A DNA stretch of 64,000 bases, taken from NCBI RefSeq assembly GCF_003334355.1, contig NZ_QOWP01000005.1. One strand, written 5' to 3'. A program made the translations under genes and the position numbers. Origin of the DNA: Escherichia coli (lineage in GTDB: Bacteria; Pseudomonadota; Gammaproteobacteria; Enterobacterales; Enterobacteriaceae). Shown here piece after piece: positions 76 to 43,665 of the stretch (position 1 is the first letter of the stretch; every line of letters starts with the position of its first letter). The notes beneath the pieces were generated by a model. It saw nothing but the letters and a program-made list of their open reading frames with translations. It was not told the DNA's origin and made no database searches.

Positions 76-79
76 CTTC

Positions 80-2993: not shown

Positions 2994-5018
<2,025 letters not shown>

Positions 5019-20296: not shown

Positions 20297-20459
20297 CTTC
20301 CACTCTCCTGGGCTGGCAGCATAAATTCCGCTTAAGTTCTTATGACGCTCTTCACACTCTGCAAGTGTAGACTCAATGATTCCTTTAAGTCTGTCAATTC
20401 GGGATATATGATTCCATACATCTGCAATTATTTGATCGTAAATAGTAAGGTCACCACCG
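20297..20459. promoter_or_regulatory. murR / murQP divergent control region
   Basis: 163-bp spacer between divergent starts; operator positions not determined. Confidence 0.4.
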
Positions 20460-21356
20460 ATGCAATTTGAAAAGATGATTACTGAAGGCTCGAACACCGC
20501 CTCGGCTGAAATTGACCGCGTATCGACGCTGGAAATGTGCCGGATTATCAACGATGAAGATAAAACCGTACCGCTTGCCGTTGAGCGCGTACTGCCGGAT
20601 ATCGCCGCGGCGATCGATGTTATCCACGCCCAGGTAAGCGGTGGCGGGCGTCTGATTTACCTCGGTGCGGGAACATCCGGTCGTCTGGGGATTCTGGATG
20701 CCAGCGAATGTCCGCCCACCTACGGCGTGAAACCAGGTCTGGTAGTTGGATTAATTGCTGGCGGCGAATATGCCATTAAGCACGCGGTGGAAGGCGCGGA
20801 AGATAGCCGGGAAGGCGGCGTTAACGATCTGAAAAATATTAATTTAACGGCACAGGATGTGGTGGTCGGTATTGCCGCCAGTGGTCGTACGCCGTATGTG
20901 ATTGCCGGACTGGAATACGCGCGCCAGCTCGGTTGCCGTACAGTGGGAATTTCCTGTAATCCGGGGAGCGCCGTTTCAACCACCGCAGAGTTTGCCATTA
21001 CACCGATTGTAGGTGCCGAAGTGGTTACCGGTTCTTCGCGGATGAAAGCAGGTACAGCGCAGAAACTGGTACTCAATATGCTCTCCACCGGGCTGATGAT
21101 TAAATCCGGCAAAGTGTTCGGCAACCTGATGGTCGATGTGGTCGCCACCAACGAAAAACTGCATGTGCGCCAGGTCAATATCGTTAAAAACGCCACCGGA
21201 TGTAATGCCGAACAAGCGGAAGCGGCGTTAATTGCCTGCGAGCGCAACTGTAAAACGGCCATTGTGATGGTGCTGAAAAATCTCGATGCCGCAGAAGCTA
21301 AAAAACGCCTGGATCAACACGGCGGCTTTATTCGTCAGGTTTTAGACAAGGAATAA
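20460..21356 (+). CDS. murQ: N-acetylmuramic acid 6-phosphate etherase
   Basis: 298 aa SIS-domain protein. Confidence 0.95.
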
Positions 21357-21359
21357 CCC

Positions 21360-22784
<1,425 letters not shown>

Positions 22785-22788
22785 TATC

Positions 22789-24093
22789 ATGAAACGGACA
22801 ATGCTCTATCTTTCTCTGCTGGCTGTTAGTTGTAGCGTCAGCGCCGCAAAATACCCTGTTCTGACAGAAAGTTCGCCAGAGAAAGCAGGGTTCAACGTCG
22901 AACGGCTTAACCAGATGGATCGCTGGATTAGCCAGCAAGTTGATGTCGGTTATCCCGGCGTAAACCTGCTGATCATTAAAGATAATCAGATTGTGTATCG
23001 CAAAGCCTGGGGAGCGGCGAAAAAGTACGATGGCAGCGTGTTGATGGAACAGCCTGTCAAAGCCACCACCGGGACGCTGTATGACCTGGCCTCAAACACC
23101 AAAATGTACGCCACGAACTTCGCCCTGCAAAAGCTGATGAGCGAAGGCAAACTGCATCCTGACGATCGGATTGCGAAATATATTCCGGGGTTTGCCGATA
23201 GTCCAAATGACACCATTAAAGGCAAAAACACCCTGCGGATTTCTGACCTGCTGCATCACAGCGGCGGTTTCCCGGCAGATCCGCAATACCCGAATAAAGC
23301 GGTCGCGGGCGCGTTTTATTCCCAGGATAAAGGCCAGACGCTGGAGATGATCAAGCGCACGCCGCTGGAATATCAGCCCGGCAGCAAACATATCTACAGC
23401 GATGTCGATTATATGCTGCTTGGATTTATCGTCGAGTCGGTTACCGGTCAGCCGCTTGACCGCTATGTTGAAGAGTCGATTTATCGCCCGCTCGGCCTGA
23501 CACATACGGTATTTAACCCGCTGCTGAAAGGCTTTAAACCGCAACAAATTGCCGCCACGGAATTGAACGGCAATACCCGCGATGGCGTGATCCATTTCCC
23601 GAATATCCGCACCTCCACTCTCTGGGGTCAGGTGCACGATGAAAAAGCCTTTTATTCGATGGGCGGCGTTTCCGGGCACGCAGGTTTGTTTTCCAATACC
23701 GGCGATATTGCGGTGTTAATGCAAACGATGCTGAACGGCGGGGGCTATGGCGATGTGCAGCTGTTCAGTGCGGAAACGGTGAAGATGTTCACCACCAGCT
23801 CTAAGGAAGATGCCACTTTTGGCCTCGGCTGGCGCGTGAATGGTAATGCCACCATGACGCCGACGTTTGGCACGCTGGCAAGCCCGCAAACCTACGGTCA
23901 CACTGGCTGGACCGGAACGGTGACCGTTATCGATCCGGTCAATCATATGGCGATTGTGATGTTAAGCAACAAGCCCCATTCGCCAGTTGCCGATCCACAA
24001 AAAAATCCCAATATGTTCGAAAGCGGTCAGTTACCAATTGCAACTTATGGTTGGGTAGTTGATCAGGTGTATGCGGCGTTGAAGCAAAAGTAA
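22789..24093 (+). CDS. yfeW: Penicillin-binding protein 4B / beta-lactamase-fold peptidase
   Basis: 434 aa from MKRTMLYLSLLAVSCSVSAA (signal peptide); SxxK motif in LASNTKMYA; track ORF start 22702 overlaps murP and is rejected. Confidence 0.9.
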   Translation: MKRTMLYLSLLAVSCSVSAAKYPVLTESSPEKAGFNVERLNQMDRWISQQVDVGYPGVNLLIIKDNQIVYRKAWGAAKKYDGSVLMEQPVKATTGTLYDLASNTKMYATNFALQKLMSEGKLHPDDRIAKYIPGFADSPNDTIKGKNTLRISDLLHHSGGFPADPQYPNKAVAGAFYSQDKGQTLEMIKRTPLEYQPGSKHIYSDVDYMLLGFIVESVTGQPLDRYVEESIYRPLGLTHTVFNPLLKGFKPQQIAATELNGNTRDGVIHFPNIRTSTLWGQVHDEKAFYSMGGVSGHAGLFSNTGDIAVLMQTMLNGGGYGDVQLFSAETVKMFTTSSKEDATFGLGWRVNGNATMTPTFGTLASPQTYGHTGWTGTVTVIDPVNHMAIVMLSNKPHSPVADPQKNPNMFESGQLPIATYGWVVDQVYAALKQK

Positions 24094-24095
24094 TA

Positions 24096-24132
24096 AAAAG
24101 GCCAGTCAGTTTTGTTACTGGCTGGCCTTTAA
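24096..24132. terminator. Bidirectional terminator between convergent yfeW and yfeX
   Basis: aaaaaggccagtcagttttgttactggctggcctttaa: long GC stem with flanking A/T runs. Confidence 0.75.
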
Positions 24133-24150
24133 TCAATGAATCAGAAACGC

Positions 24151-25134
<984 letters not shown>

Positions 25135-25145
25135 TCAGACGCAAA

Positions 25146-25721
25146 TTAACGCCGCCAGATAATTTTACTGACTTTCCAGTTTTTCAGGGTATCGTCCGAA
25201 GGCATTAACCCTTCAGGACCACGCCATTCCCCGCTGAACTGGTAGCTAATATGTTGACTGCCTTCGGCTTTACATTCGACGGCACGATTATCATCACCAT
25301 CAGCTTTTTGGCAATTGCCAAATGCTTTGCTGTAAAGGTCGCTAAACGGTGTACCGATTTTAACACCGGTGTCAGCAGGAATATCGCTATCCAGCACGTC
25401 AATGCGGCTGATCGTGCCTTGCTCGCCGTTAATCACCATCGCCACATTGTCGTCTTTCATCACTTCAAAAAAGCGCACCACGTTGCCGTTCGCGGTTTTC
25501 ATTCCGCTGCGCAGGCGATAATCGCCATCAAGCGCATCAGCAATGGCTTGTTCTTGCAGTGGTGTGGACGCCGTTAATTCACCCACGCCCTGCTCGCTCA
25601 CTTTGGTGGACGACCCAAACCAGTTCCACGGGTTAGCGGCAGACCAGTTAACTGACGACATCGTGGAACAGCCGGTCAGCATCAACGGCATAGCGCATAA
25701 CATTAAACGCAGCGATTTCAT
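25146..25721 (-). CDS. yfeY: Outer-membrane lipoprotein YfeY
   Basis: 191 aa; lipobox LTGC in MKSLRLMLCAMPLMLTGCSTM. Confidence 0.85.
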   Translation of the reverse strand: MKSLRLMLCAMPLMLTGCSTMSSVNWSAANPWNWFGSSTKVSEQGVGELTASTPLQEQAIADALDGDYRLRSGMKTANGNVVRFFEVMKDDNVAMVINGEQGTISRIDVLDSDIPADTGVKIGTPFSDLYSKAFGNCQKADGDDNRAVECKAEGSQHISYQFSGEWRGPEGLMPSDDTLKNWKVSKIIWRR

Positions 25722-25808
25722 GTCACTTCCTTTGGTTATTCAATAACGTTGCTTGGAGTGCAAATTCACCAAAAAGTGCCGTTAAAGGTTGATGACAAAC
25801 ACAAAATT

Positions 25809-25906
25809 GCCTGATGCGCTACGCTTATCAGGCCTACTTTCTCCTGCAATATATTGAATTTTCGATGTTTTGTAGGCCGGATAAGGCGTTCTCGCCGCAT
25901 CCGGCA
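25809..25906. repeat. REP/BIME pair
   Basis: gcctgatgcgctacgcttatcaggcctac and gtaggccggataaggcgttctcgccgcatccggca. Confidence 0.8.
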
Positions 25907-25927
25907 TAAACAAAGCGCACCTCTGCG

Positions 25928-26377
25928 TTATTCTTTTTCTTCATTAAAACAAGCGCGTAAACGTCGATTGGTCAGCAGCCAGATTAACGCCACAATATCC
26001 GCCACTACCAGCGCCAGACCGATACCGCTAACGGATTCACCGTTCAGCCACAGCCACGGTTGCCAGCAAAGTAAAACCACCTGCGCCAACAGCAACAGAA
26101 AATAGAGTACACGCCAGGTGCGAGGAAACGTAGCCCGCCGACCGCTCAACAAAAACGCCAGCACCGCCGGAATGCCAGGAATCAGCCCCAGCCAGAAATT
26201 ATCGTGATCGGGATAAAACAGATTTAGCAGCGCAGTACCCTGCTCGCGCGACGCACCGGCAATGACAAACAGCACCCAGGTTCGCGCCTGAAGCAATAGC
26301 ACAAGCCAGAAGAGCAAGGGTAAACGCAGGCGACCGTGCGCATCATAATGGACAGGATGAAACTCAGTACTCTTCAT
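25928..26377 (-). CDS. yfeZ: Inner-membrane protein YfeZ
   Basis: About 149 aa, hydrophobic; start [15 protein letters not shown] chosen (alternative ATG 6 nt upstream). Confidence 0.8.
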
Positions 26378-26789
26378 CTTCAATCAAACGCTTACCCAGA
26401 CTCAGCACGTCGGCGTGTTCATATCCCAGGCGTTCATACATTCCGAGCACCATGTCGTTATCTTCCGGCACGTTGATCTGAATTTTCGGGCAGCCACGAG
26501 CAATCAGCTTTTTCTCCAGCCGATTAAGCAACGCATTGGCAATCCCACGCCCACGAAACTCTGGATGCACGCCAAGATAATAAGCAGACCCGCGATGCCC
26601 GTCATAACCGCCCATCACCGTTCCGACCACGTCACCGTTTACCTCAGCGACCAAAAACAAACTGACGTCATGGTTCATCTTACGCTCGATGTCCATTTCC
26701 GGATCGTTCCACGGACGCAGCAAGTCGCAACGCTCCCAAAGGGTGATGACCTCTTCGAAATCTTCCTGGCGAAATACGCGTATCTCCAT
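26364..26789 (-). CDS. ypeA: GNAT-family N-acetyltransferase
   Basis: 141 aa from [14 protein letters not shown]; acetyl-CoA binding motif region [10 protein letters not shown]. Confidence 0.9.
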
Positions 26790-27002
26790 GGTATTCGTTA
26801 CCTTTTTGCGGGTTAAAAGGCTGATTATGGCGTGAACGGTCGAATTAGCCAATATCTGACGAAAATCGGTTGAAAAAGTGGCATAATGGGGAGTTGTCAA
26901 CTATTGAAATGAAAAGTAAAACAATTCTCAACAGCAAACCGTCGTAACGGATTACGCGATACGATATAACATCTGGAACTTTATTATTACAACTCAGGCC
27001 GT

Positions 27003-27872
27003 ATGAGCACTTTTAAACCACTAAAAACACTCACTTCGCGCCGCCAGGTGCTGAAAGCCGGTTTGGCTGCCCTGACGTTGTCAGGAATGTCGCAAGCCAT
27101 CGCCAAAGACGAACTTTTAAAAACCAGCAACGGACACAGCAAGCCGAAAGCCAAAAAATCTGGCGGCAAACGTGTCGTTGTTCTCGATCCAGGTCACGGC
27201 GGAATTGATACCGGAGCGATCGGACGCAACGGTTCGAAAGAAAAACATGTGGTGCTGGCGATTGCTAAAAACGTCCGTTCCATTTTGCGTAATCATGGGA
27301 TTGATGCGCGTTTAACGCGTTCTGGCGATACGTTTATCCCACTTTACGATCGCGTTGAAATCGCCCATAAACATGGCGCAGATCTGTTTATGTCAATTCA
27401 TGCCGATGGCTTTACCAACCCGAAAGCTGCCGGTGCTTCGGTATTTGCCCTCTCTAACCGTGGGGCAAGTAGCGCAATGGCGAAATACCTGTCTGAACGC
27501 GAAAACCGCGCCGATGAAGTTGCCGGTAAAAAGGCGACTGACAAGGATCACCTATTGCAACAAGTGCTGTTTGATCTGGTGCAAACAGATACCATTAAAA
27601 ATAGTCTGACGCTCGGCTCGCATATTCTGAAGAAGATTAAGCCGGTGCATAAACTGCACAGCCGCAACACCGAACAAGCGGCATTTGTGGTGTTGAAATC
27701 ACCGTCGGTTCCTTCGGTGCTGGTGGAAACCTCGTTTATCACCAACCCGGAAGAAGAACGGCTGTTAGGCACGGCGGCGTTTCGTCAGAAAATCGCCACA
27801 GCGATTGCTGAAGGCGTGATCAGTTATTTCCACTGGTTCGACAACCAGAAAGCACATTCGAAAAAGCGATAA
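27003..27872 (+). CDS. amiA: N-acetylmuramoyl-L-alanine amidase
   Basis: 289 aa; Tat-type signal (SRRQVLKAGLAALTL); amidase_3 fold. Confidence 0.95.
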   Translation: MSTFKPLKTLTSRRQVLKAGLAALTLSGMSQAIAKDELLKTSNGHSKPKAKKSGGKRVVVLDPGHGGIDTGAIGRNGSKEKHVVLAIAKNVRSILRNHGIDARLTRSGDTFIPLYDRVEIAHKHGADLFMSIHADGFTNPKAAGASVFALSNRGASSAMAKYLSERENRADEVAGKKATDKDHLLQQVLFDLVQTDTIKNSLTLGSHILKKIKPVHKLHSRNTEQAAFVVLKSPSVPSVLVETSFITNPEEERLLGTAAFRQKIATAIAEGVISYFHWFDNQKAHSKKR

Positions 27873-28775
<903 letters not shown>

Positions 28776-28780
28776 CTCCC

Positions 28781-29833
28781 TCACCCCCACTCCCGCATCC
28801 GCTGATGCAGCGTCAGTGACGGCTTCTCGGAAAACAGCTGCTGGTAATCCGTGGCAAATTGCCCCAGATGCCAGAATCCCCACTGCATGGCGGCGTCTTT
28901 TACCGTCATACTTTGCGACCACGGACTTATCAGTTCGCGGCGTACGGCGTTCAGGCGAATGCGTTTCAGCCACGCGTTCGGGCCAATGCCTAAAATAGCG
29001 TGAAACGCGTTTTGTAGCGTGCGGCGGCTGACATGCAGTTGATTACACAAATCCAGCACCGTCACCGGTTCGGACATGTTTTCCAGCACATATTCACGGG
29101 CGCGGGAAAGCAATCGACGGTAACTCTGATGACTGATGCTTTCCGCCGTCACCATTGGTTGCGCTTCTTCCAGCATGGCCCCCATCGCCATTAGCAAATT
29201 ATCCCCCAGCACTTTTCGCACTGCAGGCTGATGGAGATTTTCCGGATTCTCGCAAAACGTCGCCAGCGCCTGTTGGACAAAGCCCCACAGCGCGGCTTTA
29301 TGCTGCTCTTTCACTTCCAGCGCCGACTGGTTACGCAACATATGTAATACCCGATCCGGGTTATGCAAAAAGTTAGCCTGCCGGGTGATGACATCTTCAG
29401 AAAGCACCACGCCCAGGATCGTGTAATCATCCGGCGTGCTCAGTTCAAATTCAGTGCCACCAGGGCGGGTGGCGATTTCCGCGCTTCCCAGACATTGCGA
29501 ACCGATAAATCCCTGCTCACCGCGCGTCGCCGGAATGCCAAACCAGAACGAGTTCGGCCAGACCAGGCACGACTGACGCAGCGCCAGACCGGTGTATTCA
29601 CGAAAAACCTGAATATCATCGAGTAGAATTTCCGTAAATTCACCATGAAACTTGCCCGGATGCAGCTGATCGTAAATCTGCTGCCAGGCGGTAATCGTTA
29701 AAGCATGTTCATAGACATCCGTTGTCTGTCGTTGATGAACATTATCCACTTCGACCTTCGGCGTGAGCTTCAGGTTTTCGGGTAAGGGTTCATGATAAAG
29801 ATGGTGCAAATTGGCTGTACGGGTCTTTTTCAT
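28781..29833 (-). CDS. eutR: AraC-family activator of the eut operon
   Basis: 350 aa; C-terminal AraC HTH; last gene of eut cluster. Confidence 0.95.
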
Positions 29834-29878
29834 GATGTTAATGCCGGGTGTTGTAGGACACCCGGCACCTCCGACAGG

Positions 29879-30379
29879 TTAATGGGGCTTGAGACGATAA
29901 CGACTACTGCGTTTACGTAACGTCCCGGCAGAAAAGAGCTGTTCGAGCGCATTTCTGGCTTTTTCCAGCGGCCAGCCAAAGTGGGCAGCCACTTCTCCTG
30001 CCGTCATTCCCTGACGTACTGATGTTAACAGCGCCAACAACTCGTCAGCAGATTCCGCGACGATAACTGGCGCGTCGGGTTCCCTTACGGGTTGCTTCGG
30101 CTGGCGGTTAAAGCCAGTAACCAGCCACTGGGTGTCATCGTCTGGCCGACCGATCTCCTTGCGGCTGATGACACGCCCGGTACGCATCGCGGCAGCACAA
30201 CCTGCGTCCAGCGCCGCACGACACGCCGCCAGATCGCCTTCCACCACCAGCGTTAAGCGACCAGGGTCAAGCACTTCGTGACTGAGCAGACGAACGTTAG
30301 CTGCTTTGAGCATGGCATCCGCTGCATCTATCGCGGCGACCATGCCGTCCACTTCCAGCAATCCCAGTGCATTGATCAT
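29879..30379 (-). CDS. eutK: Microcompartment shell protein EutK (BMC domain + C-terminal nucleic-acid-binding-like domain)
   Basis: 166 aa from MINALGLLEVDGMVAAIDAADAMLKAANV. Confidence 0.93.
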   Translation of the reverse strand: MINALGLLEVDGMVAAIDAADAMLKAANVRLLSHEVLDPGRLTLVVEGDLAACRAALDAGCAAAMRTGRVISRKEIGRPDDDTQWLVTGFNRQPKQPVREPDAPVIVAESADELLALLTSVRQGMTAGEVAAHFGWPLEKARNALEQLFSAGTLRKRSSRYRLKPH

Positions 30380-30391
30380 CGGCAACCTCCG

Positions 30392-31051
30392 TTACGCACG
30401 CTGGATTGGATTACGCGCGATTTCCAGCACTGCATCGGTAAAGGCGTTACAGGCTGCTTTACACGCTGCCTGGCTACCGGTTAAAAATGCTGCCGAGTAG
30501 TTGGTTTCAGACGGTGGCGGGACATAGGTCGCCAGCTGTACGTCGGCAGACTTCAGGGCTGCATCAATGCCATAGGTCGCTTCCAGCGGCGGTGCCACCA
30601 GATACGCCATCGGATCGCCAAGCGTGATCCCGGCGGTTGATGAGAGATAAGAACCGGTACGCGAAACTACATGTGCCAGGAATGCCGTATCTTGCGCGTC
30701 ATTAGCCCACTGGAAAGCTGCGCCATTTTCAATATGCGCAATCATCGCATCCAGACCTGCACGCACTTCCGCCGGGTTTGGCCCACCAAGCATAATCAGC
30801 ACTTCACCGGCAGTCGGTGACGGGCCGTGTGCAGCGCCCGCATATAGCGAGCGGCCATACACCACTTCCACCATCGCCTGCTTGGTCGCTTCATCAGCGG
30901 CAATGTAGGTGACGTCATCGGAGTCGGCAGAAATCAGACCGAGGCTACGAATATGCGGCGGCAATTTCAGTTCACGCGCAAAATCGGCGTTAACGGAGGC
31001 AATCACCCGCATAGCGGTGACAGACGGTCGAATCAAATCTAAAGCTGGCAT
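30392..31051 (-). CDS. eutL: Microcompartment shell protein EutL (tandem BMC)
   Basis: 219 aa. Confidence 0.95.
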
Positions 31052-31060
31052 GATGCCTCC

Positions 31061-31948
31061 TTATCGGGTCATGTTGATGCCGGATGCTTTCTGCTCCAGC
31101 ATACGTTTCGCCAAATCCACAATGACGGCTGCGGCTTCAACCGGCGGCGTGCCGCCCTGGTGAATGTTAGAGATACAGGTGCGATCGGCCTCAACGGTGG
31201 TCGCCATACGCGGCGAGTAAACGGCGTAGCAGGAGAGGCTTTCTGACTGACCCAACCCCGGACGTTCGCCCACCAGCAGGATCACTACTTTCGCGCCGAG
31301 GATCTCACCGATCTGATCTTCAATCTTCACGCGACCATAACGAACAAAGAATGGTGTACCGACTTTCAGCCCGGCCTGTTTCAGGCCCGCCATCAGCGGT
31401 GGCAGGATCTCTTCGTAGTTCACGGTGATCGCATCAGTTGACAGGCCATCAGAAATAACGACCTGTACGTCCGGATTGGCAACACACTGCGCTTTCAGCG
31501 CTTCAACAGCTTCTGCACACAGGCGGCGGCCCATATCCGGGCGAGTCAGGTAGAGATTTTTGTCGCTAATTTCAGAGCGTACTTCCAGCAAGCCCTGCGC
31601 TTTCACCCACTCTTCCGGCACTTCTTTCAGTACGGTATCTTTCGAACGAGAGTGATCGGCCAGGAAACGCAGCAGCGCCTGCGTACGTGGACGCGGACCG
31701 GCACGACCGGTACAAACGCGGGCCACGGTGCTGCGGCGCAGTTCTGTTAATACGTCTGCGCGATGCGGATTTTCAACACCAATCCACGCTTTTGCTTCAG
31801 CGGAACCTAAATCCAGCGCACAGCTTTCCGAGGTCACCGGTGCCGCACAGTTGGTGGTGGCGCACTTTGCTTCTGACGGCGCGGGGGCCGCTTGTCCCAT
31901 TGACGCCATCACGCTGCGTACAATTTCTTCAATCTGTTTTTGATCCAT
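31061..31948 (-). CDS. eutC: Ethanolamine ammonia-lyase small subunit
   Basis: 295 aa. Confidence 0.95.
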
Positions 31949-31968
31949 GATATGTTATCTCCGCGTCA

Positions 31969-33330
31969 TCAGAAGAACAGTGACGGATCGCCCGCCCGTT
32001 TGGTCAGGCGACCGTTTGCCATAATGCCCATGCTTTCCAGCCAGCGTTCAAACTCCGGTGACGGGCGCAGGTTGAGTAACTGACGCACAGTGGCGGTATC
32101 GTGGAATGCGGTGGTCTGGTAGTTGAGCATGATGTCATCACCCAGCGGCATCCCCATGATGTAGTTGCAGCCTGCGGTGGCGAGCAGGATCATCAGGTTT
32201 TCGTTGAGGTTCTGGTCAGCGTCAGCGTGGTTGGTATAACAGCAGTCACAGCCCATAGAGATGCCACTCAGCTTGCCCATAAAGTGATCTTCTAAGCCAG
32301 CACGGATAATCTGGCGGTCGTTGTAGAGATACTCCGGCCCAATAAAGCCGACCACGGTGTTGACGATAAACGGATCGTAATGACGCGCCAGCCCGTAGTT
32401 ACGTGCTTCCATCGTTACCTGGTCTGCGCCGAAGTTAGCGCCAGCGGATAGCGCAGAGCCTTGTCCGGTTTCGAAGTAGAGGCAGTTTTCCCCGGCGATA
32501 CGGTTGAACTCCGCGCCCACTGCGCGCGCTTCGTCGAGCATCGCCAGCTCCACGCCAAACTCTTTCAGCCCTTTTTCGCTGCCACAGATACTCTGGAAAA
32601 TCAGCCCGCCCGGTGCGCCACGACGGATCGCTTCGATCTGGGTGGTGACGTGCGCCAGTACACAGCCCTGAGTTGGGATGTTGAATTTGTCGATCACGCC
32701 ATAGATGGTATCCAACACGCGGCTTAAGTTTTCCACGTCGTCAGTCACCGGGTTAACGCCGATCACCGCATCGCCCACCCCGAAGGAAAGCCCTTCGTAG
32801 ATTTGCGCGGCGATACTTTGCACGTCGTCACGGGTGTCATTTGGCTGCAAACGGGCGCTAAAGGTGCCCGGAATACCGATGGTGGTATTGGCCTTTTTGA
32901 TTACCGGCATTTTCTTCGCGCCGTAGATCAGGTCCGCGTTGGAGCAAATCTTCGCTACCGCCGCGACCACTTCCGAGGTCAGCCCTTTGCGGGTAAAGGC
33001 AATGTCGTCCACGCTGGTTTCATCGCTCAGCACATACTCACGCAGTTCGCTGATGCTCCAGTTTTTAATCTGGTTGTAGGCCGTTTCGTTAACATCGTCC
33101 TGAATCAGCCGCGTCACGCAGTCATCTTCATAGGCAATCACCGGATTATTGCGGATGTCCGCTACGGTCATTTCCGACAACACCTGCTTTGCCGCCACGC
33201 GCTCCTGTGAGCTTGCCGCTGCGACGCCCGCCAGCACATCCCCCGAACGCAGTTCGTTGGCTTTAGCCAGCACCTCTTTTACATCCTTAAACTGATATAC
33301 ATTGCCGAACAATGTGGTCTTTAGTTTCAT
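31969..33330 (-). CDS. eutB: Ethanolamine ammonia-lyase large subunit
   Basis: 453 aa. Confidence 0.97.
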   Translation of the reverse strand: MKLKTTLFGNVYQFKDVKEVLAKANELRSGDVLAGVAAASSQERVAAKQVLSEMTVADIRNNPVIAYEDDCVTRLIQDDVNETAYNQIKNWSISELREYVLSDETSVDDIAFTRKGLTSEVVAAVAKICSNADLIYGAKKMPVIKKANTTIGIPGTFSARLQPNDTRDDVQSIAAQIYEGLSFGVGDAVIGVNPVTDDVENLSRVLDTIYGVIDKFNIPTQGCVLAHVTTQIEAIRRGAPGGLIFQSICGSEKGLKEFGVELAMLDEARAVGAEFNRIAGENCLYFETGQGSALSAGANFGADQVTMEARNYGLARHYDPFIVNTVVGFIGPEYLYNDRQIIRAGLEDHFMGKLSGISMGCDCCYTNHADADQNLNENLMILLATAGCNYIMGMPLGDDIMLNYQTTAFHDTATVRQLLNLRPSPEFERWLESMGIMANGRLTKRAGDPSLFF

Positions 33331-33341
33331 AAGTCGTTCCC

Positions 33342-34745
33342 TCAGGAAGGAAATGCGAGTGATTTCACCGTCACCGGCACAACCGATCCGCCAAAAAGAG
33401 GCGTACCAATGTCGATATAGTCCCCCGCGCGGACAATCACTTCGTCAATGACTGCCAACGGGAGTTGTTGTAGCTGTGGGCGCAACAACATGCCCAGAGC
33501 TTTACCAAAGTCCTGCCCGGCCACCACCAGCAGGGGATGCGGATTCGGAAAACGCGCGACGAAATCGACCAACGCGTTGATGACCGTCAGTACCGCGGCG
33601 TAACGCACAGGCAGCGAGGCGGGAAGCGCCAGCACGTACGCGTCAGTTTTGGGATCAAGATCCAGCTGAATCAGCGCCTGTTGCCAGGCCCCCACCAGAT
33701 CCGTTTCATCAATCGGGATCGCCACCGGCAAATTGCGCAGCGGCAGTTGTACGCCCTCAAGCCAGATTGTGCTGCCAGAGAGCGAAAGGGTATGCGCGCC
33801 CGCGCCAATCACCGTGGCGCGCACGGTTTGCGCCGGAAACTGTACGTTCATCTCACGCAGGCGCGGATGGTCATGCAGCGCAGTTGCCAGCAGCGGGCCA
33901 ATATCGGCAAAACAGAACGGGTCGGCGGGCTGGTGGCGATAACATTCGCCCACGCCGCCAGAAAGCGTAATGATTTCGGGCGTAACACCTGCGGGCAGCA
34001 AACCGGTTTGCATCAATGCCTGCGCGAGCGGTGAGAGCGTTCCGTCAATCACTTCGACAATCAGTTCTGCCATCCGCCGGGTCACCTGCACCAGCTGCGC
34101 GCCGGTCAGCGAACGGGCGTCGGTGCCTGCACCGAAGCACTCATCCACAATCATCTGCCCCGGTTTATGAGCGTAAACCACGCGCCCGTGGCTGTCGGTT
34201 TCCAGCAGGCGACCACCGACGTTGAGGCAGGCAGTGCCGCTGATTTTTCCGGCATCGAACAGGGCGTAGTTCGCGGTGCCACCGCCGATGTCGATATTCA
34301 GTACCCGACACAGCCGTTGTTCAGAAAGGGTTTGTGCCCCGGCTCCGTGACCGGCGATCACGGATTCGAGGTGCGGCCCGGCGCTGGCAACGACAAAATC
34401 GCCCAGCGACTGAGAGAGCGCCATCACCGCCGGGCGAGCATTGCGGGTTTTCGCGCTTTCACCGGTGATGATGATGGCACCAGAATCAACGCTTTCCGGC
34501 TCAATACCCGCAGCATGATATTGCTCGAGTATTAAGGTTTTCAGTTCCGCTTCTTTTAAACCGCCCTGTTTATCGACAGGGGTAAAGAACACCGGACTTT
34601 GCCAGCTAATTTCGCGTTTAATGAATTCGTAGCGCGGCACCTGCGACACCGCCGCACGGTTAACCAGCTCCAGCCGGGAGAAAATCACCTGGGTGGTGGT
34701 GGTGCCGATATCGATACCGACGCTCAATAGCTGGCGAGTGTTCAC
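33342..34745 (-). CDS. eutA: Ethanolamine ammonia-lyase reactivase
   Basis: 467 aa; contiguous with eutB (11-nt spacer). Confidence 0.95.
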   Translation of the reverse strand: MNTRQLLSVGIDIGTTTTQVIFSRLELVNRAAVSQVPRYEFIKREISWQSPVFFTPVDKQGGLKEAELKTLILEQYHAAGIEPESVDSGAIIITGESAKTRNARPAVMALSQSLGDFVVASAGPHLESVIAGHGAGAQTLSEQRLCRVLNIDIGGGTANYALFDAGKISGTACLNVGGRLLETDSHGRVVYAHKPGQMIVDECFGAGTDARSLTGAQLVQVTRRMAELIVEVIDGTLSPLAQALMQTGLLPAGVTPEIITLSGGVGECYRHQPADPFCFADIGPLLATALHDHPRLREMNVQFPAQTVRATVIGAGAHTLSLSGSTIWLEGVQLPLRNLPVAIPIDETDLVGAWQQALIQLDLDPKTDAYVLALPASLPVRYAAVLTVINALVDFVARFPNPHPLLVVAGQDFGKALGMLLRPQLQQLPLAVIDEVIVRAGDYIDIGTPLFGGSVVPVTVKSLAFPS

Positions 34746-35968
34746 GATTGTGCCTCCGCTTCGGTTTTAGTCGCGGTCGCGTCTTCTTTTGGCACCAGCA
34801 TCATCGCCACGCCAATCGCCGTTACGCCGCCGATCAACTTGCCGACAATCATCGGGAAGATCATGGCGTTCATGTTGGCAGCGGCGAAGCCTAAGTGGTC
34901 GCCCAGGGCGAAAGCAGCGGAAACGGCGAAGGCGCAGTTGATGACTTTGCCGCGGGTATCCATCTGCTTCATCATGCCGAACATCGGGATGTTGTTGGCA
35001 AGCGTTGCCACCATGCCGGCTGCCGCGATGTTGTTCATATTCAGTACTTTACCGACGCTCATCAGCGGTTTTTCAAACCAGCGAGTCAGCAGCAGCACCA
35101 TCGGATACGCCCCTAACAGAACGCAGGAGATAGAACCGATAACTTCAATGGCGCGCATCACCTCACCGGGTTTATCGCCAGGGGCCATAAAGATAGGATC
35201 CAGACCGGGGATCAGTTCCCAGCCAAGCAGGAATTTCACTACCGCAGCGGCAAGACCGAGGGTGATCAATGCAACGAGGAATTTGGCGAAGATCTGGAAG
35301 CCGTTGATCATTTTTTCCGGGATGAATTTCAGCCCCAGCGCCACCAGAATCGCAACAATGATCACCGGGATCATGTTCATCAGGATCAGGGCGAAAGTGA
35401 ATTCCACCGGCTGGCCGTTGATCTGCACACCGGAGTACATAGCAACCAGACCACCAGCGATACAACCAATCGGAATGGTCACAATGCCCGCCAGCACGCC
35501 GAGCGCCAGATAACGACGGTCAGAAGGTTCGATAATGCCGAGCGCCACCGGAATGGAAAACACAATCGTTGGCCCCATCATCGACCCGAGAATTAACCCA
35601 GAGTATAGCCACGCGGCTACGTCGCCGCCCGCCAGCTCTTTGGCGAGGAAGAAGCCGCCCATATCGCACGCCAGCAGTGTTCCGGCGAACATCGATGGGT
35701 TAGCGCCGAGCATTTCGTAAACCGGAATAATTACCGGCCCGAGAACGTGAGCCAGTACCGGTGCCAGCGCGGTCATACCGACCATCGCCAGGCCCAGTGC
35801 GCCCATTGCCATAAAGCCTTCTTCGAACTGACCGCCTGATCCTTCGATACTTTTACCGAACTTACCGAGGAAACGAGCAGAACCGCCGAACTGCGACAGG
35901 ATCCTGTCTACGGCAGCTATCAGCATAAAGAACATCATGATGTACATGATGATTTCGTTAATTCCCAT
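34742..35968 (-). CDS. eutH: Ethanolamine permease/facilitator
   Basis: 408 aa polytopic membrane protein. Confidence 0.95.
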   Translation of the reverse strand: MGINEIIMYIMMFFMLIAAVDRILSQFGGSARFLGKFGKSIEGSGGQFEEGFMAMGALGLAMVGMTALAPVLAHVLGPVIIPVYEMLGANPSMFAGTLLACDMGGFFLAKELAGGDVAAWLYSGLILGSMMGPTIVFSIPVALGIIEPSDRRYLALGVLAGIVTIPIGCIAGGLVAMYSGVQINGQPVEFTFALILMNMIPVIIVAILVALGLKFIPEKMINGFQIFAKFLVALITLGLAAAVVKFLLGWELIPGLDPIFMAPGDKPGEVMRAIEVIGSISCVLLGAYPMVLLLTRWFEKPLMSVGKVLNMNNIAAAGMVATLANNIPMFGMMKQMDTRGKVINCAFAVSAAFALGDHLGFAAANMNAMIFPMIVGKLIGGVTAIGVAMMLVPKEDATATKTEAEAQS

Positions 35969-35998
35969 CGCCTTTACTCCCTGTTAGTTGTTATTTAT

Positions 35999-36183
<185 letters not shown>

Positions 36184-36184
36184 T

Positions 36185-37372
36185 TTATTGCGCCGCTGCG
36201 TACAGGCCGACAATCTGCTCCAGGCTGGCGGTACGCGGGTTACTGCGCAGACAAATATCTTCCAGCGCGGCCTGCGCCCATGCGCCGTAATGCGCAGATG
36301 TCGCACCAACATCGCCCAGTCGTTTACCAATCCCAACTTCCGCAATCAGCTCACTTACCGCGTTAATAGCGTCACGATCGTCGGATTTTTTAGTTCGCAG
36401 TGCCCGACCAATCTGACTAAAGCGTTCACGACAAACCATCCGGTTAAATTCCATCACCGTTGGCAGCAACATGGCGTTCGCGAGACCGTGCGGAATATGC
36501 AGCGCCGCGCCCGGCTGATGCGCCATCGCGTGGCACAACCCAAGACCCGCACTGGAAAACGCCATTCCCGCCATACATGAAGCCAGTAACATGCTCTCGC
36601 GCGCGGCAAGGTCGTGACCGTAGCCCACCGCTTTCGGCAGCGATTTGCCAATCATCGCAATGGCACCAATCGCCAGGCTGTCGGTAAACGGTGTAGCGTT
36701 CAGGGCGCTGTATGCTTCAATGGCATGGGTTAACGCATCAATGCCGGTCATCGCCGTGACATGCGACGGCACACCTTCGGTCAATGCGGCGTCGAGGATC
36801 GCCACATCCGGCATCAGCGAGGCATGGGCTAACACCTGCTTGCGCCCGCTCACCGCGTCGATAATCACCGTTACATTGGTGGTTTCAGAGCCGGTTCCGG
36901 CGGTCGTTGGAATGGCAATCAGCGGCAAGCGCGGTTGCAGAACGCTGGTTTCTGACATCTCTGCCAGCGTGCTATCGGGGTTCGTCACCAGCAACGCCAC
37001 GGCTTTCGCCGCATCCAGCACCGAGCCGCCGCCAAATGCGATCACCCCATCACAGCCTGACTCACGCAACTGCGCCACGGCTGCACACACGTCGGTAATG
37101 CACGGTTCGCCCACCGGACATGGCCAGAGCGTCATGGCGATGCCTTTAACAGCCAGGCTGCGCGTCAGCCCGGCGGTCATCCCCGCCTGATGCAAAAAGC
37201 TGTCTGCCATCACGAACAGATGTTTCAGCCCACGCGTTTGCGCTTGCTGCCCGCAACTGCTCACCGCGCCCGGACCGCAAAGCGTCACCGGTGGAACGCT
37301 AAATGTTTTTACCCGTTGCAGATTCAGGGTATCGAACGCCTGAAAGAGCGCGGTCTGCAATTCATTTTGCAT
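36185..37372 (-). CDS. eutG: Iron-containing alcohol dehydrogenase
   Basis: 395 aa from MQNELQTALFQAF; Fe-ADH fold. Confidence 0.93.
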   Translation of the reverse strand: MQNELQTALFQAFDTLNLQRVKTFSVPPVTLCGPGAVSSCGQQAQTRGLKHLFVMADSFLHQAGMTAGLTRSLAVKGIAMTLWPCPVGEPCITDVCAAVAQLRESGCDGVIAFGGGSVLDAAKAVALLVTNPDSTLAEMSETSVLQPRLPLIAIPTTAGTGSETTNVTVIIDAVSGRKQVLAHASLMPDVAILDAALTEGVPSHVTAMTGIDALTHAIEAYSALNATPFTDSLAIGAIAMIGKSLPKAVGYGHDLAARESMLLASCMAGMAFSSAGLGLCHAMAHQPGAALHIPHGLANAMLLPTVMEFNRMVCRERFSQIGRALRTKKSDDRDAINAVSELIAEVGIGKRLGDVGATSAHYGAWAQAALEDICLRSNPRTASLEQIVGLYAAAQ

Positions 37373-38198
37373 ATAGCCCCTCCGCTTTCTCTCGCCCACT
37401 ACTGGCGATCGCCAGCGGGGTCATAAACAAACTGTGCTGCGGTAAATGCACCTGTAACGCCGGGAATTGTTTGCGAAACAGTTCCGCCACGCCCGGTTGC
37501 AAACAAGAGCCGCCCGCCAGCCATAAATCAGTAATGCCCTGCCCTTCAATATGCCGGGCGACAATGTCCGCCATTTTTTCGTACACCGGTTTCACCGCAG
37601 GCCAAATCTCTTCACCGTGACCGCGCTTGTACTGCTCCGCCTCTTCCAGCGAAATACGGCGATTTCCGGCGAGAGTCAGAGAGATGTGATGTCCGCCGGT
37701 GGCTTCATCCGCCGAGTACGTCACCTTGCCCTTTTTCACGATGGCAATGCCGGTAGTGCCGCCGCCGATATCCACTACACCGGCGTTGTCCAGTTGCAGC
37801 AGATCCGCAACTGCGGTTGGCTCATCCAGCACATGGCTCACTTCCAGCCCGGCAGATTCCAGCACGTTGATGGAAATACGCGGGTCCGTACCTGGAGGAA
37901 ATGAAGTCGCCGCATGGCTAAAACGAAGACCGAATTGCTGCTCAAGAGTGTCGAGATGGCGACGAACAATGGTGACCGCACCGAAGAAATCCCAGACGAT
38001 GCCGTCGCGGACCACATCGGCCCAGTCGAGGCATACCGCCACCGGCTGACCGTCGCGGTCAACAACCATCGACACCACATCGCAGGTGCCCAGATCCACC
38101 CCCAGCCACAGCGGAGATTCCGTCGCGGCGGGCGTCTGGTTACACAGCGTTGCCGCCGTTTGCAGACGTGGGGTGAGCCATTGTTCGTCGTGCGCCAT
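37362..38198 (-). CDS. eutJ: Hsp70/actin-fold chaperone-like protein EutJ
   Basis: 278 aa; DIGGGTTG nucleotide-binding motif. Confidence 0.93.
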   Translation of the reverse strand: MAHDEQWLTPRLQTAATLCNQTPAATESPLWLGVDLGTCDVVSMVVDRDGQPVAVCLDWADVVRDGIVWDFFGAVTIVRRHLDTLEQQFGLRFSHAATSFPPGTDPRISINVLESAGLEVSHVLDEPTAVADLLQLDNAGVVDIGGGTTGIAIVKKGKVTYSADEATGGHHISLTLAGNRRISLEEAEQYKRGHGEEIWPAVKPVYEKMADIVARHIEGQGITDLWLAGGSCLQPGVAELFRKQFPALQVHLPQHSLFMTPLAIASSGREKAEGLYAK

Positions 38199-38208
38199 CT
38201 GTTACTCC

Positions 38209-39612
38209 TTAAACAATGCGAAACGCATCGACTAATACACAGCGACGCAGACGGACAAACGTACGCGCGCTGGTTACCCCTTCACCGGTTGGCGTGGTGA
38301 TGGTCATGGTGGTCCAGCCTTCCCCGCCCAGCCCCAGCCCGGCAATGCACGGTCCGTTCTTAACGAAAATGCTGGTATCAATAGCATTCGCCATCTGGTT
38401 CATGTTTTCGATGTTGCGCGAGTGCATTGCCGCCGTGTGGTGGCAACCGCCTTCCAGTTTCACCGCCAGCGCAATGGCATCCGCCACGTTGGCGACGCGC
38501 ACGACGGGCAGCACCGGCATCATCAGTTCGGTCACGGCAAACGGATGTTCTGCAGTGGTTTCCACAAACAGCAAACGCGTTTCTTGCGGCACGTTCAGGC
38601 CGATTGCCGCCGCGATTTTCGCCGCATCGCGACCAACCCAGTCACGGCTGACGGTGCCTTTTCCGCGCTCGTCGATATTTTTCAGCAACACCGGTTGCAG
38701 CTGCTGCGCCTGTTCTGCGGTCAGTTTCACCGCGTGCTGGCCTTCCATCAGACGCATCAGTTCATCGGCTACGCTATCAACAACAATCAGTACCTTTTCG
38801 TCGGCACAAATGATGTTGTTATCGAAAGAAGCGCCTTTGACGATGGACTGAGCGGCACGGGCGAGGTCGGCGGTTTCATCCACCACTACCGGCGGGTTGC
38901 CAGCGCCTGCGGCAATCAGACGTTTATTGGTGTGTTTACGCGCCGCTTCTACTACCGCTTCGCCGCCGGTCACCACCAGAAGGCCGATGCCCGGAAACTT
39001 GAACAAACGCTGCGCGGTTTCGATATCCGGATTTGCCACAGTAACCAGTAAGTTTTCCGGCCCGCCTGCGGCAACAATCGCCTGGTTGAGCAGCGTGATC
39101 GCCCGCTGGGAGACTTTTTTCGCCGCCGGATGCGGGGCAAAAATGACGCTGTTGCCCGCGGCAATCAGGCTGATGGCGTTATTAATTACGGTTGCCGCCG
39201 GGTTAGTGGACGGAGTTACCGAAGCCACCACGCCCCAGGGCGCGTTTTCAATTAAAGTCAGGCCGTTGTCGCCGGTCAGCACCTGCGGAGAGAGACACTC
39301 AACGCCTGGCGTGCCGCGCGCCTGAGCGACGTTTTTGGCAAATTTATCTTCAACGCGGCCCATGCCGGTTTCACTGACGGCAAGTTCCGCTAAATCTCTG
39401 GCGTGTTTTTCGCCTGCCTCACGAATGGCAGCAATGGCTAACTGGCGCATTGCCACGCTTTTTAACCCTTGCTGGGCGACTTTGGCTGCCGCAACGGCGT
39501 CATCCAGGGACGCGAAAACGCCCATCTCATGAACGGCGGCGGGCGGCATGTCACTGCTTTGCATTTTCAGCAGTACCGCTTTCACCACCTGTTCAATATC
39601 CTGTTGATTCAT
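38209..39612 (-). CDS. eutE: CoA-acylating acetaldehyde dehydrogenase
   Basis: 467 aa aldehyde dehydrogenase fold. Confidence 0.95.
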   Translation of the reverse strand: MNQQDIEQVVKAVLLKMQSSDMPPAAVHEMGVFASLDDAVAAAKVAQQGLKSVAMRQLAIAAIREAGEKHARDLAELAVSETGMGRVEDKFAKNVAQARGTPGVECLSPQVLTGDNGLTLIENAPWGVVASVTPSTNPAATVINNAISLIAAGNSVIFAPHPAAKKVSQRAITLLNQAIVAAGGPENLLVTVANPDIETAQRLFKFPGIGLLVVTGGEAVVEAARKHTNKRLIAAGAGNPPVVVDETADLARAAQSIVKGASFDNNIICADEKVLIVVDSVADELMRLMEGQHAVKLTAEQAQQLQPVLLKNIDERGKGTVSRDWVGRDAAKIAAAIGLNVPQETRLLFVETTAEHPFAVTELMMPVLPVVRVANVADAIALAVKLEGGCHHTAAMHSRNIENMNQMANAIDTSIFVKNGPCIAGLGLGGEGWTTMTITTPTGEGVTSARTFVRLRRCVLVDAFRIV

Positions 39613-39623
39613 GATGTTCTGCC

Positions 39624-39911
39624 TTATTTGTGGAAAATTACCTGACCGCCAGACACCACCTCATCGACAATGCCAATCACGCACAGATCGACCGGTGACG
39701 TTTCGCTTTTATGCGCCTGGCGGGCGGAACTGCCACTCACCAGTAACACCCACTCCCCGGTCCCCGCGCCAATATTGTCGATGGCGACGGCGCATTGCCC
39801 GTCAGGATTACCTTGTGAATCAATCATTTCCACCATCAGCAATTTGTCATGCGCCAGTCCGTGATGGCGTACGGTACAAACAATTTGTCCAGTGACGACT
39901 GCCAGTTTCAT
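39624..39911 (-). CDS. eutN: Microcompartment vertex protein (EutN/CcmL family)
   Basis: 95 aa; MKLAVVTGQIVCTVRH. Confidence 0.93.
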   Translation of the reverse strand: MKLAVVTGQIVCTVRHHGLAHDKLLMVEMIDSQGNPDGQCAVAIDNIGAGTGEWVLLVSGSSARQAHKSETSPVDLCVIGIVDEVVSGGQVIFHK

Positions 39912-40017
39912 ACCCGCCTCCGTGGCGTATTTCAGGTAAAAGCTCCCCCTACCCTCCGCAGAAGGTAAAATGAAAAAGGAGAGAGCGTGACGCCCGAATC
40001 GACGTCACACAGGGTGA

Positions 40018-40311
40018 TTACAGGTTGCTGCTATCGCCTTTCAGGCCGATCGGGAAGACTTCTTCCAGGTCGCCGTGCGGACGCGGGATAACGTGTACAG
40101 ATACCAGCTCGCCGATACGCTGTGCCGCTGCGGCACCTGCATCGATCGCGGCTTTACAGGCTGCAACATCACCACGAACCATGGCAGTACACAGGCCGCC
40201 GCCAATCTGCTTAACACCAACCAGCTTGACGCGCGCAGCTTTCACCATCGCGTCAGAAGCCTCAATCAGTGCAACCAGGCCCCGGGTTTCGATCATTCCT
40301 AATGCTTCCAT
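40018..40311 (-). CDS. eutM: Major microcompartment shell protein (BMC-H)
   Basis: 97 aa from [26 protein letters not shown]; longer track ORF rejected. Confidence 0.93.
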
Positions 40312-40349
40312 TGTGCTTTCCTCTTTATCAGGGTCCAGAACGGGACCGT

Positions 40350-41366
40350 TCATTCAACCAGTGTTTGTAAACTGCTTTCGCGGTTCACTTCTGTCTGACG
40401 CGGCACAGCTGCCACCAGCGCCAGCTCGATAATTTCCTGCACGCTACAACCACGAGAGAGATCGTGCATCGGCGCGGCAAGTCCTTGTATCAGTGGCCCG
40501 ACGGCACGATATCCGCCGAGTCGTTGTGCGATTTTGTAACCAATATTTCCGGCTTCCAGCGACGGAAAAACCATCACATTGGCCTTGCCCTGTAGCGGGC
40601 TGGCAGGCGCTTTTTGCGCCGCCACTTCCGGCACGAAGGCGGCGTCAAACTGTAACTCGCCATCCACCACCAGCTTTGGTGCGCGCTCACGGACGATTTC
40701 TGTCGCCTGCTGGACGTTAGCAACACAGGGGTGACGGGCGCTACCATTGCTGGAAAACGACAGCATCGCCACGCGCGGCTCTTCTCCGGTGATGGCGCGC
40801 CAGGTTTCGGCACTGGCAAGCGCGATATCCGCCAGCTGCGCCGCCGTCGGCTGTGGCACCACGCTGCAATCGGCAAAGCCCAACGCCGGGCCGCTGTACT
40901 GTGGCAACATCAGGAAAATGGAAGAGAGCGTTTTACAGCCTGGCTGCAAGCCGATAATGCGTAATCCGGCACGCAGCACATTTGCCGTGGAAGAGAGGTT
41001 GCCCGCGATACAGACATCCGCTTTACCGGCGCTGACCATTGCTGCGGCGAACATCAGAGGGTCGGTAAGTTTTTCCAGCGCATCCGGCGGCGTTTTTTCG
41101 CCCGCGCGGGCCAGCCAGCGATGAGCAAATTCTTCCCGCATTGCGAGGTTGCCATGCGGATCAATCACCTGTAGCCCGTCCATCGCCACGCCGTGACTGA
41201 GCGCAAACTGACGAAGTTCAAACGGATTGGCGACCAGAATGGGCGTTGCCAGACCTTGTTGATGTAAATATTGCGCGGCTTTCAGCACACGTTGGTCTAA
41301 CGCATCCGGAAAAACCACTCTGGCGGGCGCTCGCAACGCCAGTTCACGACAACGTTCAATAATCAT
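40350..41366 (-). CDS. eutD: Phosphotransacetylase
   Basis: 338 aa PTA fold. Confidence 0.95.
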
Positions 41367-42165
41367 TGCGTTCCCCCAGTCGTTGTTGGATCTGCTTCAC
41401 CGTTAGCGGCTGCTTCGTTACGCTCAGGATCATCATCACGTAGACCGTGCTGGAAAGGCGGTTCAGCGCCTGCAAAATGTCCGGGCGTAATACTTCAAAG
41501 CTGCGGGTGATAAAGACCTGCGCCGCTACGGTTTCGGTTTCCCGCACTTTGGTGCGTAGCAGATTGAGCAACGCAGCATCGCGCCCGTGGCTGGCTTCCG
41601 GCACCAGATGATCGTGGTCGAGATAGCGCAGCGGCTGATGAGAAAGCCGATGCAGATCTTCGTCAGAAAGCCCGACAATCGCCTGGCAGCCCAGCGGTTC
41701 CCCCAGCGCATCGGCGCGCATAATGTTGCCAAGACGCGAACGGATATCCGCCAGCCACGGCTGCCACGGTTCCGCCAGTTCAATTTGCAGCCACACTACC
41801 AGCGCAATGGTGCTGTCGAGAACCGCGCGAAAACCCAGACGCGGATCGCTTTTGGCGACCATTTTTTCCGCCGACAGGTGAGTCAGCGTATCCGGCTTTT
41901 TTGCCACCGGCTGGCGACACAGTTCGCAGCACGCCTGCGGATGTTCATCGCTACTGGTCAGCCCATGAACGGGCTGCGGCTGCTGCTGTTCATCGTCAAC
42001 AAACAGGCGGCCCTGCTCGTCAATAAACTTGATGCGCAGATGGCGGCTTTCCAGCAACTCCCGGGCAGAGGGCGTCAGGCGACTGTCCGCAGGGAGATGG
42101 ATCTCTGCGCCTTCGCTGAGCGTATGGTTCGCTCTTAGCCATGCTTCGGTGATGAAATCTTTCAT
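41356..42165 (-). CDS. eutT: Corrinoid (cobalamin) adenosyltransferase
   Basis: About 267-269 aa; cysteine motif CCELC; start codon not resolved to within 2 codons. Confidence 0.9.
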
Positions 42166-42863
42166 AGGGATTGCCAGTTAGCCGGCCAGGCGACATACAG
42201 GAATTTCACGCTGGATGTCGTACCAAATTCGATGCTGGAGCCTTTCGGGATAAACATCACGTCGCCTGCTTTGGCGATCATGGTTTGGCCTTCGTGGCGA
42301 ACATGCAGCTCCCCTTCCAGCACCATGTCGATTTCGTCGTAGTTCAGGGTCCACGGGAAGAATGCGTTCTCCCACTGCATAAAACCGGCGGCCATGCTGC
42401 TGCCGTCGTCTCCGGTCACAAGATCAGTCAAGCCCACGCAATGCGGCTCTGCGCCGTCGAAACGACCAAACTTGACGCTACTGCCATCAATCACTTTGAT
42501 GCCGCCTTTGCCGGTCACCGATTTGAAGCTCGGCTGCATTGCGCCCTGCTCCAGCGACTGTTTTTCCTTCATCACTTTTTCCATCAGCTGTGCGACCAGG
42601 CTTTCGGTAAACTGGCCTTCCGGCAGCTGGGCAATGATGGTTTCGCGGATGCGCTGGCTTTCGGTTTTGTCGGCTGGCACGCTGGCGGGCACGGACGCCG
42701 TTACCGGGATCGATTCATCACATTCGGTGATGGTAAAACCCAGTAGATCCGCCACTTCACGGGCTTCCGGGGTAATAATGCTGGCGCGCAGAACCACGGA
42801 CATTGCCTGTTCGCCGCGCGCGTGTGCTTCACGAATATCATTCGCTGTGATGAGTTTTTTCAC
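42162..42863 (-). CDS. eutQ: Cupin-fold protein EutQ
   Basis: 233 aa. Confidence 0.93.
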   Translation of the reverse strand: MKKLITANDIREAHARGEQAMSVVLRASIITPEAREVADLLGFTITECDESIPVTASVPASVPADKTESQRIRETIIAQLPEGQFTESLVAQLMEKVMKEKQSLEQGAMQPSFKSVTGKGGIKVIDGSSVKFGRFDGAEPHCVGLTDLVTGDDGSSMAAGFMQWENAFFPWTLNYDEIDMVLEGELHVRHEGQTMIAKAGDVMFIPKGSSIEFGTTSSVKFLYVAWPANWQSL

Positions 42864-43317
42864 CTGCTTCCTCCTGTTTGGTGAGAGATGCCAGATAATC
42901 CACCAGTTGCTGCACGCTTTGCGGGTCGTGGCTGTTTAGCACGAAAATCGGCTCTTCGAAACCCGTCTCAAGCAATAACTTTCGCGTTGCGGCGACGTCA
43001 GCATCTGGCATGTCCGTTTTACTGATGACGGCGATTTGCCGTTTGCTGACGCCAATATCCAGCAACCCGGCAGGCAACCGACTTTCCGGGTCATTTGCGC
43101 CATGGACATAGATCAGCATGTCTACATCCTGTAGCGTGGTAATTAAGGCGTGATACCAGCGGGGATGGTTAAAATATTCACCCGGCGTATCAATATCGCC
43201 CTTATCATTAAATTCCACGGCCTGTGTTTTTCTGGCGAGGGTATAATTCCCCTGCAACGCATTAAATAACGTTGTTTTTCCTGCCCCGACGCTACCCACA
43301 AACGCAATTCGTTTCAT
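42838..43317 (-). CDS. eutP: P-loop NTPase EutP
   Basis: 159 aa; Walker A GSVGAGKTTL. Confidence 0.93.
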   Translation of the reverse strand: MKRIAFVGSVGAGKTTLFNALQGNYTLARKTQAVEFNDKGDIDTPGEYFNHPRWYHALITTLQDVDMLIYVHGANDPESRLPAGLLDIGVSKRQIAVISKTDMPDADVAATRKLLLETGFEEPIFVLNSHDPQSVQQLVDYLASLTKQEEAGEKTHHSE

Positions 43318-43329
43318 GAATGCCTCGTA

Positions 43330-43665
43330 TTAACTTTTGGTCATTTCACAAAGCGTATAATTTAATAAGCGACCTAAACCGCTGACGGTTTGTGATAACG
43401 CTTCTTCTACTGCGCCCACCGAGCCATAAATCACCAATGCACCGCTGAATCGGTCGAGAAAACCGATATGCACATCAGCGGCTTTCAGCGCTAAATCACC
43501 GGCGATCATCGCCGTTTCGCCGGGAGTTAGCGTCATAATGCCAATTGCGCCCGCATCCGGAACGCCGATTTTCTTCGCCAGTTCCTCACCGGGATGCGCG
43601 ATGAGATGCGCCAGTGTGACCTGTTTGCCGGGCACAAATTCCTGAATGATGCGTTCTTTATCCAT
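43330..43665 (-). CDS. eutS: Microcompartment shell protein EutS (permuted BMC)
   Basis: 111 aa from [15 protein letters not shown]; first gene of operon. Confidence 0.9.

Follow-up and report, generated by a model that had tools for sequence, protein, structure and literature searches.

The eutA-eutB junction in the window, by which we mean the whole 64,000-nucleotide stretch of Escherichia coli DNA analysed here, is almost certainly the native and unoccupied junction of an intact 17-gene eut operon from a non-K-12 strain. An empty attB site between eutA and eutB is a real and ordinary feature, and it has already been described in the literature.

Both genes lie on the minus strand. The gene eutB, which codes for the large subunit of ethanolamine ammonia-lyase (453 aa), occupies positions 31969..33330, and eutA, which codes for the ethanolamine ammonia-lyase reactivase (467 aa, GTG start), occupies positions 33342..34745. 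The assignments are based on the open reading frames, their translations and the NCBIfam models NF011649 for EutB (664.7 bits against a cutoff of 554) and NF007991 for EutA (1068.7 bits against a cutoff of 799), and the neighbouring genes are likewise confirmed by NCBIfam as those for EutC and EutH. Both proteins are full-length, with the same lengths as in MG1655. eutA is situated upstream of eutB; its stop codon TGA covers positions 33344-33342 and the ATG of eutB begins at 33330, leaving a spacer of 11 nt (33331..33341, minus strand) which was read directly from the sequence as GGGAACGACTT. The coding strand across the junction therefore reads ...GCATTTCCTTCC TGA GGGAACGACTT ATG AAACTA.... 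A Shine-Dalgarno-like GAGGG motif (33339..33343, minus strand), which presumably serves eutB, covers positions -13 to -9 relative to the ATG and takes in the final two bases, GA, of the TGA that ends eutA. No integrase, repeat, foreign DNA or remnant of an element is present in the gap between the two genes. The open reading frames and the sequence thus bear out the earlier note, which had described an uninterrupted junction within 33300-33360. The distance of 11 nt and the coordinates given there are also correct, but the gene ends had been swapped: the spacer separates the stop of eutA from the start of eutB, and not the stop of eutB from the start of eutA.

Comparison of the ORF lists with the MG1655 annotation reveals a complete eut operon of 17 genes in the order eutS-P-Q-T-D-M-N-E-J-G-H-A-B-C-L-K-R (28781..43665, minus strand). 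All 17 ORFs are full length in the window, and BLAST shows the operon to be collinear with that of MG1655 except for the cryptic prophage CPZ-55. With full-length eutA and eutB, nothing but the 11-nt spacer between them and all 17 ORFs, the locus has the features of an intact enterobacterial eut operon. The EUT1-type microcompartment loci of E. coli K-12 W3110, E. coli Nissle 1917 and Salmonella enterica LT2 have these 17 genes in identical order, with an 11-nt gap between eutA and eutB and an identical sequence at the junction. Divergence from W3110 is at the SNP level only (99.6% identity over 13.3 kb), whereas other genera are about 80-88% identical to the window outside a conserved block at the junction. 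The intergenic region between eutG and eutH holds two copies of a repeat of ~85 bp (35999-36083 and 36099-36183, 100 nt apart), which cross-match at 97.6% in BLAST against K-12; this stretch is unaligned with most of the other genera compared.

In MG1655, CPZ-55 lies between eutB and eutA, as the earlier note had stated and as the annotation of NC_000913.3 confirms. It extends from intZ to yffS (2558691..2565480), is 6,790 bp long, and its genes intZ and yffL-yffS are placed on the strand opposite to eut. The upstream side of eutB ends at 2558679 and the stop of eutA is found at 2565481. When the MG1655 region is compared with the window by BLAST, two collinear blocks are obtained which meet and overlap at window positions 33342-33364. 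Inspection of the MG1655 sequence reveals an 8-bp direct repeat, TCAGGAAG, at each end of CPZ-55, and this duplication has been published earlier (PMC6379469). The window contains one copy of TCAGGAAG and no insert, and hence does not have the element-bearing eut locus of the MG1655 type; its junction corresponds, base for base, to that of MG1655 minus CPZ-55 and one copy of the repeat. The eut flanks of MG1655 and BW25113 are 99.7-99.9% identical to those of the window and have the same core TCAGGAAG, whereas the 6,790-bp insert is theirs alone.

CPZ-55 is not the only element that uses this site. We inspected the elements of two genomes, those of strains 33-6 and C7, out of ~204 with partial matches to CPZ-55. 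Strain 33-6 harbours a 10.3-kb island between eutB and eutA (positions 19990-30264 of the extracted locus L040) with an intZ-like gene, IS5 and IS1, a gadC-like antiporter gene and murI. A decarboxylase pseudogene is also present in this island, and the annotation of the same strain marks eutB as a pseudogene that contains an internal stop. Strain C7 harbours at the same place a 12.9-kb element (positions 19990-32840 of locus L041) with an intZ-like gene and genes for an HNH endonuclease and a tape-measure protein; in its content it resembles a satellite or cryptic phage. Both elements are flanked by TCAGGAAG at the same nucleotide as CPZ-55. Comparison of MG1655, 33-6 and C7 shows that TCAGGAAG is the core attachment site of IntZ-type tyrosine integrases and places the unoccupied attB core of the window at 33342..33349 (plus strand), where it is made up of the stop codon of eutA and 5 further nt. 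What the window has in common with the IntZ-family elements of 33-6 and C7 is the attB core and its position, while the variable cargo of 10-13 kb is theirs and none of it is present in the window. The eutA/eutB region has been called a 'prophage insertion hot spot', of which the UPEC strain U71 is an example (PMC6652756).

How common the contiguous form is was examined with a 1-kb query centred on the junction, which was searched in 5,426 complete E. coli genomes and matched 5,424 of them. The junction is contiguous in 4,965 of the 5,426 genomes (91.5%), and an interruption of any kind is found in only about 8%. Full-length CPZ-55 (at least 80% coverage) is present in 213 genomes, nearly half of the interrupted ones; among the matches listed, these are laboratory derivatives of K-12 and a few isolates which are not labelled K-12. 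The ~204 further genomes have partial matches only, mostly to an intZ-like gene at 80-90% identity. Outside the species, one genome per species was scanned with a degenerate pattern for the first 14 residues of EutB. In all 35 of the 35 other Enterobacteriaceae species recovered (Citrobacter, Klebsiella, Salmonella arizonae, Yokenella, Pluralibacter, Pseudocitrobacter, Intestinirhabdus and other Escherichia), the C-terminus of eutA lies directly upstream with an identical 17-mer, TGAGGGAACGACTTATG, and an identical spacer, and none of the 35 has an insertion at the eutA-eutB junction. An apparently interrupted eutA tail in Citrobacter koseri was ruled out as an insertion, being a single extra G within a run of G, that is, a frameshift or a sequencing error. 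This extra G is located ~40 nt upstream of the eutA stop in strain NCTC10786 (GGATCGGGTT vs GGATCGGTT; locus L028); it probably reflects an error in sequencing the homopolymer, the alternative being a real pseudogene.

Because 91.5% of E. coli genomes and 35/35 other species share the junction, sequence comparison supports the contiguous arrangement as ancestral and as the majority form, in E. coli as well as in its relatives, in line with the suggestion of the earlier note that this form is the ancestral one. The CPZ-55-type insertion is derived; it carries an integrase and a target-site duplication.

A contiguous junction could also have been regained. If the window once held a CPZ-55-like element which was removed by precise IntZ-mediated excision, its operon would be only secondarily intact, and the excision would leave exactly the junction sequence that is observed. 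Within K-12, the literature records a precise loss of CPZ-55 for W3110 and EMG2 (PMC9997739), and the prophage has gone from ER2796 by 'precise excision' (PMC4444293); its excision has been measured at ~1e-7 to 5e-7 per cell (PMC4632033). However, only ~8% of complete E. coli genomes are interrupted, those with full-length CPZ-55 are apparently mostly laboratory derivatives of K-12, and the genomes nearest to the window (H5, H6 and MSB1_9D; 99.9% identity) are likewise contiguous. Since interruptions are rare and the closest genomes are contiguous, parsimony favours a site that was never occupied in the lineage of the window, and we regard a past excision as improbable.

Given that CPZ-55 excises precisely, an intact junction is compatible with K-12 and also with a site that was once occupied. 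The earlier note had concluded from the junction that the window is not from a K-12 chromosome of the MG1655 type, and had named a contiguous junction in reference K-12 as the observation that would speak against this. W3110 (NC_007779.1) does have one: eutB (2562764..2564125) and eutA (2564137..2565540) are 11 nt apart with the same junction string, and there are zero mismatches between W3110 and MG1655 here outside the prophage. The K-12 assembly of AG100 (NZ_LN832404.1, L002) is also without CPZ-55. At ~3507-3596 of the AG100 locus we noticed a 90-bp tandem duplication of the junction, made up of the 11-nt spacer and the last ~79 nt of eutA and annotated as an extra 'EutA' CDS of 24 aa; it may have arisen during assembly or be the product of an unusual deletion. 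The reasoning from the junction therefore fails, although the conclusion itself stands on other grounds.

These grounds bear on the reading that the window is a K-12 derivative without CPZ-55, of the W3110, EMG2 or ER2796 type. In its favour, the junctions of K-12 strains lacking CPZ-55 are identical to that of the window, and K-12 AG100 matches the 1-kb junction query at 100% identity. Yet the window differs from W3110 by 46 mismatches in 13.3 kb and from MG1655 by about 500 mismatches over 63 kb (162+123+25+5+188 in the collinear BLAST blocks) and several small indels, where members of the K-12 lineage would differ from MG1655 or W3110 by a few SNPs per genome. Moreover, the first 761 bases of the window, with lysV and a FlxA-like gene, are unmatched in MG1655, where yfeN precedes yfeR, and the best 25-kb matches to the window are non-K-12 strains (H5, H6 and MSB1_9D). 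We consider the chance that the window is such a derivative to be negligible. On this sequence comparison the window is not K-12, and that statement rests on SNP density and the left end of the window, not on the junction. A B strain or a K-12/B hybrid came into consideration through NEBExpress and HB101, which match the 1-kb junction at 100% identity; this idea was set aside, H5, H6 and MSB1_9D being the best matches at 25 kb.

At the left end, lysV, the gene for tRNA-Lys(UUU), is found at 80-155 before yfeR, and the FlxA-like ORF of 113 aa (431-772) directly precedes yfeR, in the place taken by yfeN in MG1655; window positions 1-761 have no match within the MG1655 stretch compared. The tRNA-Lys/FlxA-like/yfeR arrangement is common to 1,308 of the 5,426 complete E. 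coli genomes, including the B-lineage strain BAP1. The xapA/xapB side of K-12 falls outside the match between the window and MG1655. The indels include ~142 bp extra in K-12 at ~18474 and ~155 bp extra at ~24099-24125, both intergenic, and at 25784-25926, also intergenic, the window is ~141 bp longer than MG1655.

With the site empty, eutBCLKR would remain part of the long transcript initiated upstream of eutS, as may be judged from the spacing of the genes and the published phenotypes of K-12 strains. It has been reported that BW25113, which carries CPZ-55, still induces eutS and eutR but not eutB, forms no microcompartments and does not grow on ethanolamine (PMC7617246). BW25113 is listed as eut- through the prophage insertion and W3110 as eut+; a scarless strain from which CPZ-55 has been removed, BW25113 eut+, has been constructed (PMC11334477). 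Removal of the prophage is reported to restore the use of ethanolamine. Strains with an intact operon have been described as having functional eut, with microcompartments and growth when ethanolamine and B12 are supplied (PMC11334477, PMC7617246). The 11-nt spacing, together with a Shine-Dalgarno motif that overlaps the eutA stop, suggests that translation of eutB is probably coupled to that of eutA. An internal promoter at eutA/eutB is unsupported, as a sigma-70 promoter scan of 32900-33800 returned 0 sites, which agrees with uninduced eutB in BW25113. Two terminator-like hits in the same interval are on the plus strand, antisense to eut, and close to chance expectation. When the literature was searched for an internal eutA/eutB promoter, nothing but unrelated papers on ectoine came up.

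The junction is also the centre of a block of about 115-150 nt (33272..33422, minus strand) which straddles the eutA stop and the eutB start and is ultraconserved at the nucleotide level. Compared in 60-nt windows with Klebsiella, Salmonella, Yokenella, Citrobacter and others, the operon reaches 97-100% identity at 33440-33260, as against 70-90% elsewhere; DNA identity of the eut operon across genera is ~80% outside the block. An invariant core of 77 nt (33384..33308) is shared by 9 sequences from different genera or species. In alignments of 10.7 kb of the operon, from which Escherichia loci were left out, this is the longest invariant run and the block is the most conserved stretch, the top 90-nt window (33379-33290) having a mean pairwise identity of 0.989 to 0.993 compared with 0.80 to 0.81 overall. 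Conservation upstream of eutB is not an artefact of how the genomes were selected, because the search pattern constrained only amino acids 1-14 of EutB.

Within the last 32 codons of eutA, 24 of the 30 degenerate codons whose amino acid is invariant are also invariant as codons, compared with 42 of 302 elsewhere in the gene (Fisher p = 7e-14), and the corresponding counts for the first 34 codons of eutB are 19/31 and 73/367 (p = 2e-6). Judging from these counts, the constraint on the block acts at synonymous sites. Weaker peaks of conservation are present at the start of eutH and where eutB meets eutC, from which it follows that constraint at cistron starts is general and that the junction block is its extreme case.

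Searches for a structural or coding basis of the block gave little. Rfam (32900-33800, both strands, E<=10) returned a chance hit only, to v-snoRNA-1 at 13.9 bits compared with a gathering score of 75. Folding of the 212-nt conserved block predicts no stable global structure (MFE -60.9 kcal/mol, mean of shuffled sequences -61.5, z = 0.14), and the Shine-Dalgarno motif is overlapped by no more than a weak 5-bp hairpin (UUCCU/AGGGA). Overlapping ORFs in alternative frames are of no meaningful length within the block (at most 49 aa, with TTG starts).

The attB core of CPZ-55 sits in the middle of the block, which is in keeping with the tendency of integrases to target highly conserved sequences, but an attB normally requires only about 20-30 bp. 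It is conceivable, though we hold it to be rather doubtful, that the block is a distinct cis-acting element, either a signal for mRNA processing, stability or translational coupling that sets the output of EutBC, or a binding site for a protein or RNA. If so, the constancy of its sequence would explain why integrases of the IntZ family have come to use its centre for attachment, and insertion of CPZ-55 would split a cis-acting element besides interrupting transcription.

For the species, these observations indicate that MG1655 is atypical at the eut locus. A chromosome free of CPZ-55 has a potentially functional eut operon, and the state of the junction is a useful strain marker, with the correction that a chromosome from which CPZ-55 is missing may still be K-12, as W3110, EMG2 and ER2796 are all without it. 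The eutA/eutB block provides an example of an integrase that targets an ultraconserved site other than a tRNA gene. Its invariance also hints that the signature enzyme of the pathway may be subject to a post-transcriptional control which has so far gone unrecognised.
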